The translations under genes and the position numbers were made by a program. From positions 1 to 41,943 of IMG/VR virus record IMGVR_UViG_3300023059_000010: DNA of 41,943 nt, one strand, 5' to 3'. Source of the stretch: a virus. Taxonomy: Duplodnaviria > Caudoviricetes. Position 1 is the stretch's first letter. Each line of letters starts with the position of its first letter. Under the pieces are notes generated by a model, which saw only the letters and a list, made by a program, of their open reading frames with translations, did not search any database and was not told where the DNA came from. Positions 3,327 to 35,007 of the stretch are shown one piece after another.

Positions 3327-4042
3327 GTGTGACTGAGGTGCGAGAATGCGCGCGCGGATGCGTCGTCTCGGTAGGGATCGAAGATGCTCAAGATATCCCG
3401 GCAATCGCTGAGGCGGGGGCTGTGCTCTGCGTGCGCTGCCTCGCGCGTCTCAGGTGGAGGTTAGGCGACATTGCCGACGTCGCGGCGCGCGCGCGGCTCG
3501 CTCTCATTCCCGGTCAAGCGGCGTCGGGCAGCGGTGAGAGAGTCAGCGGGTCTCGGATGCCCGATCTGCCGTTCAACGTGGTCGCGTTCGAGACGTGTGA
3601 TGCGCTCGTGAACTTGCTTGGCGGCTGGTGCGTGTTCTGGGGATCTGAGTTGCGCGTTGAGGTGCCTCGTCAGCTTGAGGGTGCGGCGGGGTCATCTCGG
3701 GATCTGGCTGGAGTGAAAGCGGGCACGGATGCCGATGCGGTTGCTGTCGTGCTCGAGGAGTGGAACTGGTGGATTCGTCGGCATTGGGATGCGATCGTCG
3801 CTCGCGAGGCCGCGATCGCATTCTACGAAGACATTGCGAAGGGCGTTCGCGTTGCACTCAACAGGTTCCCGCGCGACGAGGAGCGTGTGGTAGTCCAGAA
3901 GCCGCGATATTGCCCGGTGTGCGAACTGAAAGCGGTGCGGGTGACGTGGACGCATGGTCGGGATCCGGTGGTGGCTTGCACTGGCTGCAGGTGGGTGTTT
4001 GAGACGGAGTGGAGGGATCTTCTTGAGCAAATTGGCATTTAG
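3323..4042 (+). CDS. Zinc-ribbon-containing phage protein
   Basis: CARGC, CVRC, CPVC and CTGC motifs; ATG at 3323 overlaps upstream stop. Confidence 0.7.
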   Translation: MSVTEVRECARGCVVSVGIEDAQDIPAIAEAGAVLCVRCLARLRWRLGDIADVAARARLALIPGQAASGSGERVSGSRMPDLPFNVVAFETCDALVNLLGGWCVFWGSELRVEVPRQLEGAAGSSRDLAGVKAGTDADAVAVVLEEWNWWIRRHWDAIVAREAAIAFYEDIAKGVRVALNRFPRDEERVVVQKPRYCPVCELKAVRVTWTHGRDPVVACTGCRWVFETEWRDLLEQIGI

Positions 4043-4328
4043 GGCTCTGGCAAAGCAGGCTGACGTGCCGCTGCGCACGCTGAATCGGTGGCGTGCCGAG
4101 GGAATGCATGTCGTGGTCGAGGGCGGGCGCCTCTTTGCGCGGCTGGATCATGTGCTGGCGTGGAAGCGGTGGAAGTCGTTGGCGAATCCGGCGGCTGGGT
4201 TTCGTCGGGCTCGGGCGGCTCGTGCGGGCGAGTCGGGCGCTGTGGTCACGGATGAGCAGTATCGGCGCGCGTGGCGAGAGTGGGTTGCGGCTGGAGGCTG
4301 CGGTGAGGCGAAGGGGGTAGCGCGATGA
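4023..4328 (+). CDS. Helix-turn-helix DNA-binding protein
   Basis: ALAKQADVPLRTLNRWRAEG MerR/Xis-like HTH; TTG start after GGAGGG. Confidence 0.65.
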   Translation: MSKLAFRALAKQADVPLRTLNRWRAEGMHVVVEGGRLFARLDHVLAWKRWKSLANPAAGFRRARAARAGESGAVVTDEQYRRAWREWVAAGGCGEAKGVAR

Positions 4329-4438
4329 TGCGGTTGTGGTGTTCGAGGTGCGGGTCGTTCTTCGGTCGGACGGAAGATGAGCGGGAGGCTGCGAGGCTGC
4401 AGCGCGAGCATCTGGCCGATTGCGAGCTTGACCCGTGA
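4325..4438 (+). CDS. Small zinc-finger-like protein (37 aa)
   Basis: Read manually: MMRLWCSRCGSFFGRTEDEREAARLQREHLADCELDP; 4-nt overlaps with both neighbours. Confidence 0.55.
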   Translation: MMRLWCSRCGSFFGRTEDEREAARLQREHLADCELDP

Positions 4439-4683
4439 GCGAGCCTTACGGCGTCGACGTTGGTAAGCATGACTGGATGCAGGATGCGCTCTGTTCGCAG
4501 ACTGATCCGGATCTCTGGTTTGATCCGGGGCGATCGCTCGAAGCGGCGGTGGCTTGTCAACGGTGCCCTGTGCTTGAGCAGTGCGCGGAGTACGCGGTCG
4601 GATACTCAACGCAATACGGTGTCATTGGCGGCATGACTCCGGCGGAAAGGAGAAGGGCGCGCAAGCTCGGCGTGTCGCGCTAG
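4435..4683 (+). CDS. whiB: WhiB family transcription factor
   Basis: W..DALC..TDPDLWF, C..CPV..QC, GVIGG.T..ERR. Confidence 0.93.
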   Translation: MSEPYGVDVGKHDWMQDALCSQTDPDLWFDPGRSLEAAVACQRCPVLEQCAEYAVGYSTQYGVIGGMTPAERRRARKLGVSR

Positions 4684-4722
4684 GTGGCGAGTGTTGGCAT
4701 AGTCCACTATGAAACTAGCGAT

Positions 4723-4756
4723 CAAACACCCTCATGCGAATGCATGGGGGTGTTTG
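4723..4756 (+). terminator. Stem-loop terminator after the early/middle operon
   Basis: CAAACACCCTCATGC-GAAT-GCATGGGGGTGTTTG 15-bp stem. Confidence 0.6.
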
Positions 4757-4859
4757 TCGTAGACGCGCGGTTTCTGCTATTACCGTCTTTCGCCCTGACC
4801 TGCCTGGGGTGCGTCGATAGGGTGGGGTTTCCTTCGGTGCGGTTGGAGCGTGAAGGGCG

Positions 4860-5177
4860 GTGGTGCGGTTGTCATCTCATCACCGCTCTTCGCGTCGCTA
4901 CCAACTTTTGCGTGAGCAGTTCAAGCAGGATTGCTGGGCTGAGGATGCGCGCTGTTGGCTGTGCCCGTTTCCGATTGACTACTCGGCGGGGCAGTACGAA
5001 GAGGATGCGTTCGAGCTGGATCATTACTACCCGGTGTCTACACATCCGGAGTTGGCGGAGGATCCGTCGAACTTTCGTGCGTCGCATCGGCGCTGCAATC
5101 AGGTGCGCGGCAATGCGCCGCCGGTGGTTGAGGTCGATCGTACTTCGGAGGATTGGTTCGCCGGTTTCGGCAAATAG
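4860..5177 (+). CDS. HNH endonuclease (terminase-associated type)
   Basis: CWLC...ELDHYYP...N.R.SH..CN..RG; upstream of terminase genes. Confidence 0.9.
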   Translation: MVRLSSHHRSSRRYQLLREQFKQDCWAEDARCWLCPFPIDYSAGQYEEDAFELDHYYPVSTHPELAEDPSNFRASHRRCNQVRGNAPPVVEVDRTSEDWFAGFGK

Positions 5178-5328
5178 GTTTCCCTTGCTCGTGGGGTGAG
5201 GGGTGGTCGTCGTTCTGGGGTTTGCCTGGTGCGGCGACTGTGCTCGGTGTTCGCGGGTGCTGCAAGACGTTGCGGTGCTGGGCGCGGCCGAGTGCTCGCG
5301 GAGGGGGATGATCTCGCGGCGAGCGCAT

Positions 5329-5402
5329 AGCGGTGTGGAGCAGTTCGGTAGCTCGCGGGCTTCATGTGCCCGAGGTCGCAGGTTCGAATCCTGTCGCCGC
5401 CA
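5329..5402 (+). tRNA. tRNA-Met(CAT), initiator-like with atypical anticodon arm; CCA not encoded
   Basis: Cloverleaf folded by hand: acceptor AGCGGTG/CGCCGCC, D arm GAGC..GCTC, anticodon stem CGGGC/GCCCG with loop TTCATGT (CAT at 5363-5365), T arm GCAGG-TTCGAAT-CCTGT. Confidence 0.85.
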
Positions 5403-5406
5403 CGGA

Positions 5407-5841
5407 TCAAGCTGGCGCGGTCAGAGTCTTCTTGGCTCTTCCGATCGCCCAGGTCAGAGCATCTGTCAGGGCATAGGCGAACGAGACGGAGTTGTCGTCG
5501 TTGATCAGGGCGAGATGCTTGGGGCTCGGGTAGGTGTGGTGTACGTGGAAGGTCTTGTTTCGGAAGAGCTTGAGCTTTTCGATTAAGTCGGGGTGTGAGA
5601 TCGAGAGGAGATCCACGTCTTTGTCTTCGATGCCCAGCTCGCACCATCCTTCATAGACGGCATACAGTGTGGCGTACCAGATTGCGACTCTTGCGAAGTG
5701 GCCGTGATCATCTGGATTGCCGAGCCCTCGATCAGCCGGGTTCGCTTTGCCATAGGCGCGTAGCTCGTCTCTCTGCGTGCGCATGATCTCGAGATACCAA
5801 GTCAGTGCATCGAGGAAGCGCTTCTGTTTCTCTGGGCTCAT
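5407..5841 (-). CDS. Putative HEPN-domain ribonuclease (moron)
   Basis: Helical-looking 144 aa protein with LYAVYEG and RNKTFH (RxxxxH); antisense to all flanking genes; own promoter. Confidence 0.65.
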   Translation of the reverse strand: MSPEKQKRFLDALTWYLEIMRTQRDELRAYGKANPADRGLGNPDDHGHFARVAIWYATLYAVYEGWCELGIEDKDVDLLSISHPDLIEKLKLFRNKTFHVHHTYPSPKHLALINDDNSVSFAYALTDALTWAIGRAKKTLTAPA

Positions 5842-5847
5842 CTTGCA

Positions 5848-5876
5848 ACTCTAGGCAAAGGTTGCAGGTCTCGGAA
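5848..5876 (-). promoter_or_regulatory. Putative sigma-A promoter giving a leaderless mRNA for the HEPN-like gene
   Basis: Minus strand TTCCGA-N17-TAGAGT-N6-ATG; overlapped by TGCAAC/GTTGCA inverted repeat. Confidence 0.5.
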
Positions 5877-5912
5877 GCTGCGGTTTGTTGATCAACGGAA
5901 AGGGGTCTGCAG

Positions 5913-6380
5913 ATGGTTGCATACACGTTCAATGCGGAGCAGGCGGCGGGGATCATCGCCGGACTAGCTCCAGGCTCGAGGGTGATCGTTCTCGGTTGCT
6001 CTCAGGAGTCGGGGGTGGAGATCCTGCAGCACATCATCGACACGGGGCTCCTCCAGATCGTGGAGGTGCGGCGCACGAACGGCAAGCAGCGCGCACTCCT
6101 CGAAGGCAACAGGATCATCTACGTAACGAGCGAGCGCGGCAACGGAGTTCGCGGACGCACAGCGAACCTCCTGATCACTGAGCACGGGGTGAGCCCAGAC
6201 GCGGTGAAGCATGCACGCCACACGATCAACCCCACAGGTGGTACCCACATACGAGTACACATACCCCACACCGTAGAGGCGCCCATAGAGGCGCCCACGC
6301 CCGAACAGGCCACCACACAGAAGCCCGACCCGCACCCAAACCCCGAGGGGGTCACAAAAAATCCACACAACCCCAACTAG
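5913..6380 (+). CDS. Hypothetical protein resembling a fragment of a terminase ATPase domain
   Basis: RBS GAAAGGGG; RRTNGKQR...IIYVT..RG.GVRGRTANLLIT resembles the pre-Walker B region of terminases; no Walker A. Confidence 0.6.
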   Translation: MVAYTFNAEQAAGIIAGLAPGSRVIVLGCSQESGVEILQHIIDTGLLQIVEVRRTNGKQRALLEGNRIIYVTSERGNGVRGRTANLLITEHGVSPDAVKHARHTINPTGGTHIRVHIPHTVEAPIEAPTPEQATTQKPDPHPNPEGVTKNPHNPN

Positions 6381-6420
6381 CCCCCACCCACCGCCGCGGG
6401 GCTTCCTCCCTCCCCGGATG
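6340..6420. other. Putative cos/packaging initiation region
   Basis: Lies between HNH and terminase small subunit; GGGGGTCACAAAAAT...CACCGCCGCGGGG...CTCCCTCCCC; abrupt switch from C/A-rich to G/T-rich + strand. Confidence 0.45.
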
Positions 6421-6455
6421 GGTTGGGTGTTTTTCTCGAAGGGTCGGTGAGGTTG

Positions 6456-6764
6456 GTGGCGTCGCGTAGGCATTTGGTTGCGGTGAATCGCATGTTGAGG
6501 TCGGTGGATCTTGATGAGGCTGGTCGTGATGCTGCGGTGGTGGAGTTGGCGCGTGATTTTGCGCGTCGGATGGATTCGGCTGGTGATGATGCTGCGGTGA
6601 ATTTGCTGCGCGGGTATCAGTCGGCGTTGAAGGATTTGCAGCGGGCTGCTGAGCGTGTTGAGTCGGCGCGGTTGTTGCCTCGAGTTGAGGGCGATGGCGG
6701 GGCGAGTGCTGCGCGAGATGAGCCTGAGCCTGAGGATCCGGCTGAGTCGTTTTTTGACGACTAG
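6456..6764 (+). CDS. Terminase small subunit
   Basis: D.A.VELAR.FA..MD...Y..AL.DL pattern, immediately before the large subunit; start uncertain (6423-6456). Confidence 0.75.
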   Translation: MASRRHLVAVNRMLRSVDLDEAGRDAAVVELARDFARRMDSAGDDAAVNLLRGYQSALKDLQRAAERVESARLLPRVEGDGGASAARDEPEPEDPAESFFDD

Positions 6765-6780
6765 GTGAGTGGGGGTGTTC

Positions 6781-8424
6781 GTGGCTGAGGTGCTGTTTGG
6801 CAGCGAGGAGCCGCGGATTTGGACGAAGCCGCTGCGTGAGTTGACGCCTGAGACGTCGCTCGGGTTTGAGGTGATTGAGTTTGCGCTCACAGTGCTTGGG
6901 ATCGTGTTGTATCCGTGGCAGAAGTGGTTACTGATTCATGCGCTTGAGCTGTTGCCGAGTGGTGATTATCGGTTTCGCCGTGTGGTGGTGCTTGTTGCTC
7001 GCCAGAACGGGAAGACGCTGCTGGGCTCGGTGTTGACTGCTTGGTGGTTGTTCAAGGATTCGAAGCGGAATCCGAAACGACTGCCTCCGGTGCGATTCAA
7101 GGTCGTTGGTGTTGCGCAGAATCTCGATATTGCTCGGGAGCCGTGGGCTGGCGTGAAGTTGTGGGCTGATCCGAAACCGGAGACGGAGGAGGAGGCGGAT
7201 CTCGCGATCGCCGCGCTGCAGAAGCGGACGGCAAAGGTGGTGGACACGAACGGCAAGGAGTCGATCGTGTGCCGCAATCGTGCGCATTATGAGATTCGTG
7301 CCGCGGGTAACACTCGTGGCAAGCCGGCTGCGCGGGTGCTTATGGATGAGACTCGTGAGCAGACGACGTGGCGAGCGTGGAATGCGGTGTCGCAGACGCT
7401 GAAGAGCTTCGGCAACTTGGGGCAGCTCTGGGCGATCTCGAATGCTGGTGATCCGAATGCGGTTGTGCTGATCGCTCAGCGTGGTGTCGGTCTGAAGTCG
7501 GTGGCGCGCTGGGAAGAGTATGTCGAGTCCGGCATCATGTCGGCTGAGGATTACGCGAACCAGAATGATGTGTCGCTTGGGTTGTTCGAATGGTCGGCGC
7601 CTGATGGGTGCGAGCTGGATGACGTTGAGGCGATCCTGCAGGCGAATCCGTCTGTGGGGCACGGCGAGCTGACGGTTGAGGCGATCCTTTCGGATATGCC
7701 GCCTGCGATGACTGAGGCGGGTTACCGCACTGAGGTGTTGTGCCAGTGGGTGACGGCTCGTGTTGAGCCGCATATCGATCCGACGATGTTCGCTGAGCTG
7801 GCGGATGCGGCTTCGAAGATTGATTGGTCGCGCCCGGTGGCGTGCGCTGTTGACGTTTCGCATGATCGTCAGCGGTCGCATATCGCGGTTGCTGGTTTCC
7901 GCGAGGACGGTCTTGTGCATGTCGAGCTGGTTGCTTCTCGTGCGGGCATGCTTTGGGTGCCTGCTGCTGTTGCCTGGTTGCACACCGAATGGGGTGTGGC
8001 CGCGGTTGCGGTGCAGGGGCGTGGTTGCGCGGCGGGCGAGTTCGCGGAGAAGCTGCGTGAGCTGGTTGATGAGCAACTGTTGACGCTCGAGGTGCTTGAG
8101 ATCGTCGGTCCAGCACTTGGTGCGGTTGCAGGCGGGGTCAGGGATCGTGTGCAAGCAGGCACGCTGCGGCATTTGGGTCAAGAGTCGTTGCGCATCGCGG
8201 TCGAGGGCGGCATGGCGAAGCACTTGAACGAGGTCATGGTCTTCGATCGCGCAAATTCGCCGGTCGATGTGTCGCCGCTGATTGCTGAGGCCGAGGCGCT
8301 GTGGGCGCTAGAGCATTTGCCGGAGCTTGATGAGGCGCCGCCTCCGCCGCCGGCGGCAGGTGTGTTGCTGGTCGAGCACGAGCGGGGCGGTAGCGAGGTG
8401 AATCTCGCTGTCGCTTCTTTCTGA
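6781..8424 (+). CDS. Terminase large subunit
   Basis: YPWQKW, Walker A VARQNGKT, Walker B VLMDE, ANPS, nuclease AVDVS...VDVSPLIA. Confidence 0.95.
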   Translation: MAEVLFGSEEPRIWTKPLRELTPETSLGFEVIEFALTVLGIVLYPWQKWLLIHALELLPSGDYRFRRVVVLVARQNGKTLLGSVLTAWWLFKDSKRNPKRLPPVRFKVVGVAQNLDIAREPWAGVKLWADPKPETEEEADLAIAALQKRTAKVVDTNGKESIVCRNRAHYEIRAAGNTRGKPAARVLMDETREQTTWRAWNAVSQTLKSFGNLGQLWAISNAGDPNAVVLIAQRGVGLKSVARWEEYVESGIMSAEDYANQNDVSLGLFEWSAPDGCELDDVEAILQANPSVGHGELTVEAILSDMPPAMTEAGYRTEVLCQWVTARVEPHIDPTMFAELADAASKIDWSRPVACAVDVSHDRQRSHIAVAGFREDGLVHVELVASRAGMLWVPAAVAWLHTEWGVAAVAVQGRGCAAGEFAEKLRELVDEQLLTLEVLEIVGPALGAVAGGVRDRVQAGTLRHLGQESLRIAVEGGMAKHLNEVMVFDRANSPVDVSPLIAEAEALWALEHLPELDEAPPPPPAAGVLLVEHERGGSEVNLAVASF

Positions 8425-25899: not shown

Positions 25900-26114
25900 T
25901 CGTCTAGGCTATCGAGCGTTTCGCGCTCGAGCCGCCATTCGGCGCGCAGCGCCTCAAGCTCGGCGGCGCGCTCTGGCGAGACTTTGCCGGGCGGGTGGAG
26001 GATTGCCCATGCGGCTTGCTTGGAGATGCCGAGGATCTCGCCTATCTCGGCGTAGGTGAGCATTTCGGCGCGCAGCTCTGCGACAATCTCGGGGCGTGCT
26101 CTCGGGTCGCTCAA
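25896..26114 (-). CDS. Small HTH protein (sigma-70 region 4-like)
   Basis: LTYAEIGEILGISKQAAWAIL; start overlaps SRAP stop. Confidence 0.7.
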   Translation of the reverse strand: MSDPRARPEIVAELRAEMLTYAEIGEILGISKQAAWAILHPPGKVSPERAAELEALRAEWRLERETLDSLDE

Positions 26115-26740
26115 AACAGCGTCTCCGGCTGCTCAGCGGTCATTGCCTCAGACAGCGCGACAGACGCGTGCTGCGCTTCGGCAACGAGGGAGGCATCGCC
26201 TGCGCGCCCACCGCTCAGCCACTCGGCGTGCATCTCGGCAGGCAAAGTGAGAGGCATGCGTGGGTGAGCACCGCGCGCCTCGCCGATCGCGTCACGGGTC
26301 ACCATTGAGTAGGCGATGTGCTCAGCGCCTGAGTTGTCGGTGACGGTAGAGAGGATCGAGGCGATCGCGAACAGCTCCCCGCCGGGCAGGGTGAAACGCT
26401 TGCCCTTCTCGACGTACCATGTCGCAGGCAGAAGTGCGCGCTGCTGAAACGGCTTGCGCCAGTACCGCAGCAGTGTGTCGTCTCGAGAGTTGAATGCGCC
26501 TCCGTCACCGCCTGGTCGCGGGATGGACCACCAAGCGAGTTCGAGGCTGCGCTCGCCGCCGCGCTCGAAGATGATGGGGTTGAGATTGATCTCTTTGCGT
26601 CCGGTGATTGCGGCTCGGCCATTGCGCGCGCTGATCCACTCGTTGAGGAGGAGCTTGTTCTCTCGCTGATCCATCGGCTCGAGCCCGAAGCTCTCGCCTT
26701 CTCCTCGCTGCCCGCCGCCGAGCCCGTATGAAGCGCACAT
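26111..26740 (-). CDS. SOS response-associated peptidase (SRAP/YedK/HMCES family)
   Basis: N-terminal Met-Cys, FNSR, RALLPATWYVE, HPRMPL. Confidence 0.85.
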   Translation of the reverse strand: MCASYGLGGGQRGEGESFGLEPMDQRENKLLLNEWISARNGRAAITGRKEINLNPIIFERGGERSLELAWWSIPRPGGDGGAFNSRDDTLLRYWRKPFQQRALLPATWYVEKGKRFTLPGGELFAIASILSTVTDNSGAEHIAYSMVTRDAIGEARGAHPRMPLTLPAEMHAEWLSGGRAGDASLVAEAQHASVALSEAMTAEQPETLF

Positions 26741-27331: not shown

Positions 27332-27375
27332 ACTTTTAATCCGCGGGTCGCGGGTTCGAGCCCCGCCGGGCCCAC
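27332..27375 (+). other. attP common core = 3' half of tRNA-Lys(TTT)
   Basis: ACTTTTAATCCGCGGGTCGCGGGTTCGAGCCCCGCCGGGCCCAC: anticodon loop CTTTTAA, T arm GCGGG-TTCGAGC-CCCGC, acceptor 3' strand; 5' half absent. Confidence 0.88.
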
Positions 27376-27478: not shown

Positions 27479-28603
27479 TCAGCCACGAGCCTTGCCGAAG
27501 TCGACGCGGGTCACGTTCCGCGGTAGCGACTCGGCAGGCTTGCTGCGGGGATCTCGAACTGCGAGCGCGGCGTCGGGGCTCACGGCTTTGCGGCGGTGCG
27601 CGTAGCGTTCGGCCATAGCTAGGCTGGCGTGGCCTAGGAGGTCTGCGATCTCGGCAATCGACCGCCCATCTTCGAGCTGCTCGGTGGCGTAGGTGTGCCG
27701 AAGCGTGTGAATCGTGGCGTCGTCGTCATGGGTGCCGTCGTTGAGCCCTGCTGCTTCAACGGCTGGCTTCCAACTGTCGCGGTGCCAATTTGAATAGTCG
27801 ATCGGGTCTCCCGATGGCCCGGCGAAGATGAAGCCTTTGGGGCATGCTTTGCGAAGTGGTTGGGTGATCTCGTCCAGCCACGGTGCGAGCGGCACGGTGC
27901 GGTGTCTCTTGCCTTTCGTGTATGGCTTGAGTTTCCTGTTTGCTACATCCCAGGCGCGTCGGTATCTGATGCCGTCGAGAGCGAAGTGTTGGTCTCCGAG
28001 CGCTATTGCTTCGCTCCAGCGGGAGCCGGAGCCCAGTAGGACTGCCACGAGGGCACGATCAAAGTCCGTCTCGAACGCGCTGAATAGGCGATATTGCTCG
28101 TCTTCAGTAAGGGTGCGTTCGTTGACGGCTGAGACGAGGCCGAGGTTGAGACGGAGTGCTGGGTTGGCTGGGATGATCTCTGCGTCGGCTGCGCCGGTGA
28201 GTGAGGCGCTGAGTAGTGAGATGTGGCGGGTGACGGTAGCGGGCGCGAGATCTTCCGCGAGCATCTCTGCTGCCCAGGCTTTTACTTCATGGCGGGTGAT
28301 TTCGTGGATGGGGGTGTCTCCCCATTTCTTCATGAGGCGGCGGAGGCGTGAGCGGTCGCGGTAAAGCGTGGAGGCGTCTACGGTGCGCTTCTCGATCCAT
28401 TCGCTCGCCCAGTCACCCCAGGGGCGGGCTGCGGCTTGAGGGTCACGCCATCCGAGGGCGCGGGTTTCCTGTTCTGCGATGCCGCCGGCGCGCTCTGCTG
28501 CGCGCGCTTGGGTGAAGGTGCCCTCGACGTACCGTTTCTCGCCTTTGGGTGTTCGGTAGCCTGCGCGGTAGCGGCCTGATGCGAGTTTCTCTGACCAGGC
28601 CAT
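27479..28603 (-). CDS. int: Tyrosine integrase
   Basis: Catalytic R (GSRWSE), K (TKGK), HTLRH, LLGH, and Y (ERYAH). Confidence 0.95.
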   Translation of the reverse strand: MAWSEKLASGRYRAGYRTPKGEKRYVEGTFTQARAAERAGGIAEQETRALGWRDPQAAARPWGDWASEWIEKRTVDASTLYRDRSRLRRLMKKWGDTPIHEITRHEVKAWAAEMLAEDLAPATVTRHISLLSASLTGAADAEIIPANPALRLNLGLVSAVNERTLTEDEQYRLFSAFETDFDRALVAVLLGSGSRWSEAIALGDQHFALDGIRYRRAWDVANRKLKPYTKGKRHRTVPLAPWLDEITQPLRKACPKGFIFAGPSGDPIDYSNWHRDSWKPAVEAAGLNDGTHDDDATIHTLRHTYATEQLEDGRSIAEIADLLGHASLAMAERYAHRRKAVSPDAALAVRDPRSKPAESLPRNVTRVDFGKARG

Positions 28604-33776: not shown

Positions 33777-34433
33777 ATGGTCAATATTGCAGGCACTTTG
33801 CCGAAGTCGAATGGGTTGGTGTCGTACGCGTCGCAGCTCGCGAAGGCGCTGGCATCGGGGCAGAAGCATTTCGTTGTCGGTGTGGTGGTGACGGAATCGG
33901 TGAAGACGAAAACGGATCTCGATCCGGTGCCTACCGTGAAGTTCACTCGTATTGAGTTGGTGCCGCTTGGGCACGATCTTGAGTCTCCCGCGGCGGATCT
34001 GATGCTCGCTTTGGAGGCGCTGCGCAACGGTGGCGAGGGGCAGCAGCAGTTCGATATGTCGGCGCCTGGGGAGCCGGTGGAGGTCGGCCCGCTGGAGCTG
34101 GAGTCGGGCGAGGGCATGTTCTTCCGCGTGGTTGACGTGGAGCCGGGTGTGTTTGAGCTGCGTCTGTGCTCGCCGTATCTCGAGGGTCTGCGCACTCGTC
34201 GGATGCTGCGTTCGGAGTGGGGTGAGGTGCCGCCTGGTGATTATCAGGCTGCGCAGTTCGATCCTGAGCTTGCTGCGTTCGCGGATCGTCTGCTCGTGGA
34301 TTGGAACACGAACGCTGGTGAGGCCGAGGTGGTGGATGCGGAGGTCATTGACGATGACGAGCCCGCAGACGTTGAGGACGACGGAGATACCGAGGCTGAT
34401 GTCGACGCTGATGGCGGTGACGAAGATGAGTGA
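33777..34433 (+). CDS. Hypothetical protein with acidic C-terminus
   Basis: RBS GAAAGGAAG; 218 aa ORF in operon. Confidence 0.7.
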   Translation: MVNIAGTLPKSNGLVSYASQLAKALASGQKHFVVGVVVTESVKTKTDLDPVPTVKFTRIELVPLGHDLESPAADLMLALEALRNGGEGQQQFDMSAPGEPVEVGPLELESGEGMFFRVVDVEPGVFELRLCSPYLEGLRTRRMLRSEWGEVPPGDYQAAQFDPELAAFADRLLVDWNTNAGEAEVVDAEVIDDDEPADVEDDGDTEADVDADGGDEDE

Positions 34434-35007
34434 GCTTTACTACGAGCTGACGGGGAAGTCGAAGGTTAATCTCTTCGGCTACACGGTTCATCAGATTCGG
34501 GCTATTCGTGACGTTCCGGGCACCTCTGTCAAGAAGGGTGATCTGGGCGGTTGGGTTGGCTCACTGCGCCTGGAGAACGGCAACGCACGGGTCTCCGGCA
34601 ACGCATGGGTCTCCGGCAACGCACAGGTCTACGGCAACGCACAGGTCTCCGGCAACGCATGGGTCTACGGCAACGCACAGGTCTCCGGCAACGCATGGGT
34701 CTACGGCAACGCACAGGTCTACGGCAACGCAGAAATTCTCCAGTCCTGGCACTACATCACAGTTGGGCAGATCGGATCTGAGGGTGTTTCGGCAACGGTG
34801 TTTCGCACGAAGAACGGCAAGCATCGCCTGAACGTCGGTTGCTGGTCGGGCAAGCTCGGAACGCTGATGGCGGAGGTCAAGCGCCGCCGGCAGTGGTGGC
34901 ATGGCAATGAGGCGACTCAGGAGCAGTGGGTTCTCCAGTACCGTGCCCTGCGAGCGCTTGGCAAGGCGACGGTTGCACGCTGGGCTGAGGTCGGTGGTTC
35001 GAAGTGA
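34426..35007 (+). CDS. Hexapeptide-repeat (beta-helix) phage protein
   Basis: IRAIRD...VKKGDLGGWV then (GNA[RWQ]V[SY])8, C-terminal VGCWSG.L. Confidence 0.8.
   Translation: MSELYYELTGKSKVNLFGYTVHQIRAIRDVPGTSVKKGDLGGWVGSLRLENGNARVSGNAWVSGNAQVYGNAQVSGNAWVYGNAQVSGNAWVYGNAQVYGNAEILQSWHYITVGQIGSEGVSATVFRTKNGKHRLNVGCWSGKLGTLMAEVKRRRQWWHGNEATQEQWVLQYRALRALGKATVARWAEVGGSK
34579..34731 (+). repeat. 18-bp coding tandem repeat, 8.5 copies
   Basis: GGCAACGCA(C/T)(A/G)GGTCT(C/A)C units. Confidence 0.95.

Follow-up and report, generated by a model that had tools for sequence, protein, structure and literature searches.

The anticodon nucleases PrrC and RloC carry an N-terminal ABC ATPase. HEPN proteins are described as having an Rx4-6H motif with a polar residue after the arginine, placed where helix 3 ends, along with an acidic residue in helix 2 that often forms part of Ex3[KR] (PMC3710099). 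The precedent for a solo HEPN protein in a prophage is HepS (HEPN Solo) of the Salmonella prophage Gifsy-1, a tetramer that cuts tRNA-Thr, tRNA-Ile and tRNA-Ser once it has bound the tail-tip protein J; the phage that carries it is spared through trigger avoidance (PMC13043305). Bacterial initiator tRNAs are marked by a mismatch at 1:72 next to paired 2:71 and 3:70 and by three consecutive G-C pairs (29-31/39-41), of which the middle pair, G30-C40, is reported to suffice for initiation in E. coli, such variants surviving with a fitness cost (PMC5389676). A37 and C32-A38 form an initiator-specific loop shape (PMC2528185). Enteric VapC cuts tRNA-fMet between A38 and C39 (PMC4105405). A computational study proposes that phage tRNAs dodge host nucleases and reports that tRNA-fMet is in general not among the tRNAs that Shigella phages encode (PMC10264068). 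Among phiLM21-like prophages, 15 of 25 carry one tRNA, which is Met or fMet in 14 of them (PMC12429752).

Here we describe a locus in which a small antisense gene with a HEPN motif faces an initiator-derived tRNA-Met (Table 1). Its best explanation, which we hold at a probability of roughly 0.55, is that two accessory genes were acquired independently, namely a solo HEPN defence RNase and a separate, probably nuclease-resistant tRNA-fMet of the lytic programme. The window analysed is a whole virus record of 41.9 kb and represents a temperate actinobacterial phage. It encodes a tyrosine integrase, a repressor-like HTH protein, an antirepressor, RecT, WhiB, and head and tail proteins; its TerL is 55% identical to those of Propionibacterium phages E1, Anatole and B3, and the other matches are to actinobacterial phages. 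The attP-like half of a tRNA-Lys(UUU) beside the integrase likewise indicates that the phage is temperate, with an att target other than Met. Contigs from DNA run X1, which may be the source run, break at this att, one side leading into the 5' half of a tRNA and the other into foreign sequence, as is expected of an integrated prophage. A search for the host by att sequence returned one match among 201, which had two mismatches and a different isotype and was rejected as host. tRNA-dependent lysogeny, as defined in PMC10865867, was also rejected, given that the att isotype (Lys) differs from that of the phage tRNA (Met). No terminal repeats were found at the contig ends at the lengths tested. 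Elsewhere, the window encodes an SRAP-family protein near the integrase (26111-26740, minus strand), two DNA methyltransferases (3-593, C5, apparently truncated by the contig start; 39006-40001, N6/N4) and a YdcK-type beta-solenoid repeat protein (34030-35007, plus strand), inside the repeats of which one X1 contig skips 36 nt.

Table 1 Features of the HNH-to-terminase slot and of the attachment site, in window coordinates
Feature	Position	Strand	Details
HNH endonuclease	4860..5177	+	Left border of the variable slot
Structured leader, four consecutive hairpins	5180..5328	+	Between HNH and tRNA; z -3.5
Initiator-derived tRNA-Met(CAU)	5329..5402	+	A1xC72 mismatch, G2-C71, C3-G70, A11-U24, G29-C41, G30-C40; C31-G39 inverted; loop U32-U-CAU-G37-U38; CCA incompletely encoded
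144-aa solo HEPN-fold protein P0001	5407..5841	-	Predicted catalytic E64, R94, N95, H99 (alignment and model)
-10-like hexamer TAGAGT	5848..5853	-	6 nt upstream of the HEPN-gene ATG; predicted leaderless promoter without a strong -35; absent from consensus-scan output
Divergent ORF, phrog_6910, function unassigned	5913..6380	+	PHROGs match
Terminase small subunit (likely; weak match, E 0.039) and terminase large subunit	6423..8424	+	Right border of the slot
attP-like 3' half of tRNA-Lys(UUU), 44 nt	27332..27375	+	Adjoins tyrosine integrase 27479-28603

The tRNA and the HEPN gene both sit in the slot between the HNH and terminase genes. In nine of nine related (pro)phages whose HNH and TerL are the same, among which the HNH-TerL distance is about 0.5 to 2.4 kb, the slot contains neither a tRNA nor a HEPN-family member, so both elements are accessory; their absence fits a joint insertion and two separate ones equally well. 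The HEPN ORF has a GC content of 0.56, below the genome value of 0.62. ARAGORN and Rfam each call a single tRNA in the genome, tRNA-Met(CAU) at 5329-5402/5403 on the plus strand, which agrees with the first-pass annotation, as does the antisense ORF (5841-5407), whose stop lies 4 nt past the tRNA discriminator base. Antisense ORFs also stop at or inside viral fMet-like tRNAs elsewhere (for example, L120 and L143), some of them perhaps spurious frames. No viral relatives of the divergent ORF at 5913 were confirmed. The leader that precedes the tRNA is stable on the plus strand only (z -3.9 versus -1.0 on the minus strand) and its hairpins have no Rfam match. Two of the nine relatives also have structured DNA after HNH (L269, z -4.4; L023, z -2.3), and these stretches resemble genome-end sequence.

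Transcription of the two elements appears to run in opposite directions. Leaderless transcripts are common in actinobacteria, and the TAGAGT hexamer, a -10-like hexamer before the ATG of the HEPN gene, is placed where a leaderless transcript would fit. The earlier claim that this gene has its own predicted promoter thus stands in part, on this hexamer, whereas a sigma-70 scan gave zero sites in 3500-7500. The 151 nt that precede the tRNA contain no TAnnnT, suggesting that the tRNA is read from an upstream rightward transcript. Further upstream, after whiB, a very stable hairpin (4715-4765, plus strand; z -7.4) is likely a terminator that parts the early-middle genes from the HNH-tRNA transcript. 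The promoter/terminator scan found no terminator-like site on the minus strand, so read-through from the HEPN gene into the antisense of the tRNA is possible. In three of four runs, contigs from RNA libraries cover both the tRNA and the HEPN gene; they do not prove specific expression because such contigs are also scattered over 21-41 kb (28 of 30 bins in X9), and DNA carry-over is possible.

The 144-aa protein has no match in Pfam, NCBIfam, PHROGs or PADLOC, and 92 aligned family members gave no consistent family in Pfam and PADLOC. A word-index search with the single protein retrieved only itself, an exhaustive search retrieved 257 representatives at E ≤ 1e-3, and a profile search retrieved 668 clusters. 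The 150 relatives listed are 92-340 aa long, excluding one spurious repeat protein; the longest, P0009 (340 aa), has two tandem HEPN-like domains with an R-x4-H motif in each. An RxxxxH string says little by itself because 65 of the 149 window ORFs of at least 100 aa (any frame) contain one. The string noted at first pass, R94-N-K-T-F-H99, is nonetheless present and conserved through the family: in an alignment of 92 rows, picked by length from the 150 listed relatives, R94 is kept in 92/92, H99 in 91/92, E64 in 86/92 and N95 in 83/92, and E64, G65, L90, N95, H99 and W121 are each kept in at least 90% of rows. A fold predicted from the single sequence was poor (pLDDT 63), and an alignment-based model (pLDDT 95, all helical) was used instead. 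In this model, R94 ends the helix at 84-97 ahead of the loop with H99 and is followed by the polar N95, and E64 lies within the second long helix (46-69), without the optional K/R at +4. The motif thus has the HEPN spacing and stands at a helix end of a helical bundle, as in HEPN proteins, with Z scores that are modest for bundles.

Structural comparison is less decisive taken singly. Z values of 8-10 are within the chance range for helical bundles. Foldseek with the model of 5407-5841, the check proposed at first pass, gave no match at E ≤ 0.001 against the PDB and viral models and hence no significant HEPN hit, although re-ranking the Foldseek candidates with VIA-align placed HEPN entries at 8 of the top 11, led by the HEPN toxin 8xdj (Z 9.6, rmsd 2.4, 105 aligned). 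An unbiased structural search gave 3jrt (Z 9.0), 7ae2 (8.1), Csm6 (7.9) and 5yep (7.7), its HEPN entries, including YutE and AbiV, spanning Z 6.9-9.0 and mixed with unrelated bundles. Non-HEPN bundles also rank near the top, such as 9had (Z 9.1-9.4). The nearest ESM Atlas clusters are unnamed (0.95), the nearest named ones are below 0.9 and HEPN rows have TM below 0.5, and these serve as leads only. A profile search of the PDB gave a best E of 0.39, and a homodimer prediction, run with the dimeric composite active site of HEPN proteins in mind, scored 0.25 against a mark of 0.42, which we counted neither way. That the ORF encodes some small helical-bundle protein other than a HEPN nuclease would agree with the missing matches in Pfam, NCBIfam, PHROGs and PADLOC, the non-significant Foldseek result and Z scores below the level at which bundles call for caution; we consider it highly improbable in view of the R kept in every row, the N and H spaced and placed as in HEPN proteins, the conserved helix-2 glutamate and top structural ranks that are mostly HEPN. 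Motif and modest fold scores together make the predicted protein very likely a HEPN RNase, in line with the original assignment, which motif conservation, the helical model and HEPN-dominated structural ranks all favour.

The family is rare in phages, with four viral loci and no match in 50,697 phage records, and this scarcity leaves a prophage-defence role to be argued by analogy. Homologs are scattered over the chromosomes of many phyla, frequently next to housekeeping genes, and the plasmid matches are seven records, all megaplasmids. Closer homologs in actinobacterial genomes were found in 1 of 401 (the centre genome itself), 0 of 68 and 0 of 236. Among 306 neighbouring ORFs the largest cluster has four members, so neighbours are not conserved. 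No nucleotidyltransferase is present among 150 of the 161 immediate neighbours of homologs or adjacent to the gene in the window, and an MNT-type antitoxin partner was rejected on these grounds. At six homolog loci the adjacent gene is an integrase or resolvase gene, and at others it encodes TIR, Schlafen, AbiU2, Fic, RES or Nmad3, as raw counts with no background rate. In an archaeal MAG, a family member is inserted into a type I restriction system, with HsdS on one side and HsdR on the other (L066:3754-8439), the position in which PrrC sits. These contexts bear on what the RNase is for. It might act in stress dormancy or host takeover instead of phage defence, in the way proposed for integron-cassette HEPNs: the top HEPN match of the unbiased search is the integron-cassette protein 3jrt, for which dormancy is proposed in PMC3710099, and the chromosomal homologs of many phyla are often beside housekeeping genes. 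We regard this as unlikely, since the gene is antisense with a predicted -10 of its own in a prophage accessory slot, and many neighbours of its homologs are of defence and mobility type. By analogy, the HEPN gene is likely a stand-alone anti-phage defence.

The tRNA derives from an actinobacterial initiator tRNA-fMet, as had been proposed. It matches the host tRNA-fMet at 61 of 74 bases, whereby tRNA-Ile2 identity was rejected, and differs from the tRNA-fMet of actinobacterial hosts at 13-14 of 74 positions. Seven differences fall in the 17-nt anticodon arm (28, 31, 32, 37, 38, 39 and 42). The description of the tRNA as altered specifically in this arm is therefore right for about half of the changes; the others are spread over the acceptor stem, the D loop and the T arm. 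Stem changes are compensatory, pairing is kept and the cloverleaf folds. The acceptor end has the mismatch and the two following pairs of an initiator, and two of the three consecutive G-C pairs are kept, the third being inverted (Table 1). With the middle G30-C40 retained, the tRNA may still work like an initiator; with A37 and C32-A38 changed, it may initiate poorly.

The changed loop recurs in other phages. None of 401 genomes from a single actinobacterial order has the G37 pattern, which is present in 19 viral contigs. Of these, 12 have the same UUCAUGU loop without the HEPN family, and 10 of the 12 look like one lineage. The C31-G39 inversion is common to 5 of 139 viral fMet-like loci, a set in which 118 were sampled from about 900, 38 have 300-nt flanks only and many are host att tRNAs. 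Recurrence of both loop and inversion suggests selection. Positions 38 and 39, between which enteric VapC cuts, are both changed, and by analogy the phage tRNA likely resists host nucleases that cut tRNA-fMet. The avoidance of tRNA-fMet by Shigella phages does not agree with evasion being the role of all phage fMet tRNAs. Another account retains the HEPN gene as a defence gene and lets the tRNA merely supplement initiator supply or drift, its arm changes being unrelated to nucleases. The tRNA that phiLM21 has in this slot retains the canonical loop, CUCAUAA, as do 110 of 118 sampled viral fMet-like loci (many of them host att tRNAs), and changes at the bases that form the initiator loop shape (PMC2528185) might make the variant a poor initiator. 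Compensatory stem changes in an intact fold, and the recurrence of the same loop (12 contigs) and inversion in other phages, speak against this account and make it quite unlikely. A lone CAU tRNA just ahead of the terminase is a recurring layout: a single fMet-like tRNA precedes a terminase in L011, L116 and L133, and the order in phiLM21 is HNH, tRNA-Met, small ORF, TerS, TerL. We note that in another viral contig (L008:1980-3057) a G37 fMet-like tRNA is directly downstream of an RNA ligase gene, an arrangement suggestive of tRNA repair plus replacement.

The first-pass annotation had joined the two elements in one module, with the nuclease as toxin and the tRNA as antidote. Its co-occurrence check gave no recurrent linkage of nuclease homologs with a tRNA of the target isotype. 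tRNA-Met occurs in 0 of 104 homolog loci, a set made up of 4 viral loci, the best 80 of 171 genome loci and 20 metagenome loci, most of which hold distant homologs, at about 30-44% to the query, and which include several near-duplicates and eight loci with less than 300 nt downstream, and leave out the closest homologs P0003, P0004, P0010 (Microbacterium) and P0112 (30-39% identity). The first 84 of these loci (679 kb) contain 14 tRNA genes in 11 loci, none of them Met, and the remaining 20 metagenome loci (87 kb, mostly short) contain none; nor do the seven actinobacterial homolog loci of the set. Homologs do occur near tRNAs, 3 of 84 being within 300 nt of one, and these are of three different isotypes (Gln, Ala and Ser), none Met. 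In the reverse direction, profile matches to the HEPN family number 0 in the 139 viral fMet-like loci (L109, L110 and L243, which duplicate L028, L097 and the window, were not counted). A Pfam scan of 150 of the 206 ORFs adjoining viral fMet-like tRNAs found no HEPN family, a weak result because Pfam misses the HEPN family here too.

A recently assembled antidote module could still be imagined, in which the HEPN protein, triggered by any siphophage including the carrier, would cut host tRNA-fMet and a lytic-only variant tRNA would let the carrier escape. For such a model to be coherent the tRNA must be specific to lytic growth, because a tRNA made in the lysogen would rescue invaders too. Several observations would suit it: the 4-nt tail-to-tail spacing, the location of 7 of the 13 tRNA changes within an anticodon arm that still pairs, the G37 pattern missing from all 401 genomes, the lack of both elements in every related slot, and the ability of solo HEPNs to cut anticodon loops, as HepS shows. 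Set against these are the null counts in both directions, the 12 contigs with the same loop and no HEPN family, and the self-tolerance of HepS, which is trigger avoidance and does not involve a tRNA. We judge the module very unlikely. The pairing as toxin and antidote is not supported by the sequence comparisons, with no conserved neighbour found, and the arrangement on which it was built is largely real. Relatives of both elements were not found together in any other locus examined, so the tRNA likely works independently of the HEPN gene.

In the preferred reading of two independently acquired genes, the fold and the leaderless promoter are predictions, and we infer expression, gating, cleavage and the role of the tRNA. 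The lysogen would make the HEPN protein from the gene's own promoter on the antisense strand. The protein would stay inactive until a product of an incoming phage opens an active site formed by two protomers, a mode of gating shown for HepS. Once activated, it would cut host RNA (tRNA or rRNA) and stop the infection, amounting to trigger-gated abortive infection. The tRNA would be read from the late transcript during lytic growth, and the variant would keep initiation going when VapC-type or other anticodon nucleases of the host cut tRNA-fMet at 37-39.

The predicted HEPN family is unnamed and has several hundred members in many bacterial phyla; their catalytic residues are intact and they have no partner gene. 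It may serve as a candidate set for solo RNase defence and would carry the theme of HepS over to a prophage of actinobacteria. The phage tRNA is a natural variant for asking whether initiator tRNAs changed at 37-39 escape VapC-type toxins yet initiate. If the pairing were true after all, a tRNA would act as a dedicated self-immunity factor in place of a protein or trigger avoidance; no such case was found in titles and abstract openings of the literature.

Compared with HepS, the protein described here is likewise a single small HEPN domain with R-N-x3-H (R100/N101/H105 in HepS, R94/N95/H99 here), stand-alone and below 250 aa, in a prophage accessory slot with no co-occurring partner gene. Unlike HepS, it belongs to a family that is mostly outside phages, and the likeness is one of analogy, known here from sequence and model; the LT2 Gifsy-1 record, which may lack the gene, gave no significant profile match. 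The best structural matches (Z 7.7-9.6), which are of similar size, are the HEPN-MNT toxins 8xdj, 7ae2 and 5yep and the integron-cassette protein Vpc_cass2 (3jrt). Unlike HEPN-MNT toxins, the gene has no MNT neighbour (its neighbours in the window are the tRNA and phrog_6910), and identity to the structural matches is 6-14%. Unlike 7ae2 (H107/Y109), there is no tyrosine two residues after the histidine (H99-V-H here, H-F/Y-Q in the family). The analogy drawn at first pass to PrrC and RloC holds for the HEPN-type motif, with a tRNA target proposed, and is otherwise loose; membership was rejected for a single domain of 144 aa without an ATPase. As in phiLM21-like prophages with a lone tRNA-Met/fMet, a single CAU tRNA lies between an HNH gene and the terminase, whereas phiLM21 has a canonical loop and no HEPN-family homolog near its tRNA. 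Finally, as in phage tRNAs proposed to evade nucleases (PMC10264068), the changes are at or near a known anticodon-loop cut site, and the resistance they would confer here is putative.
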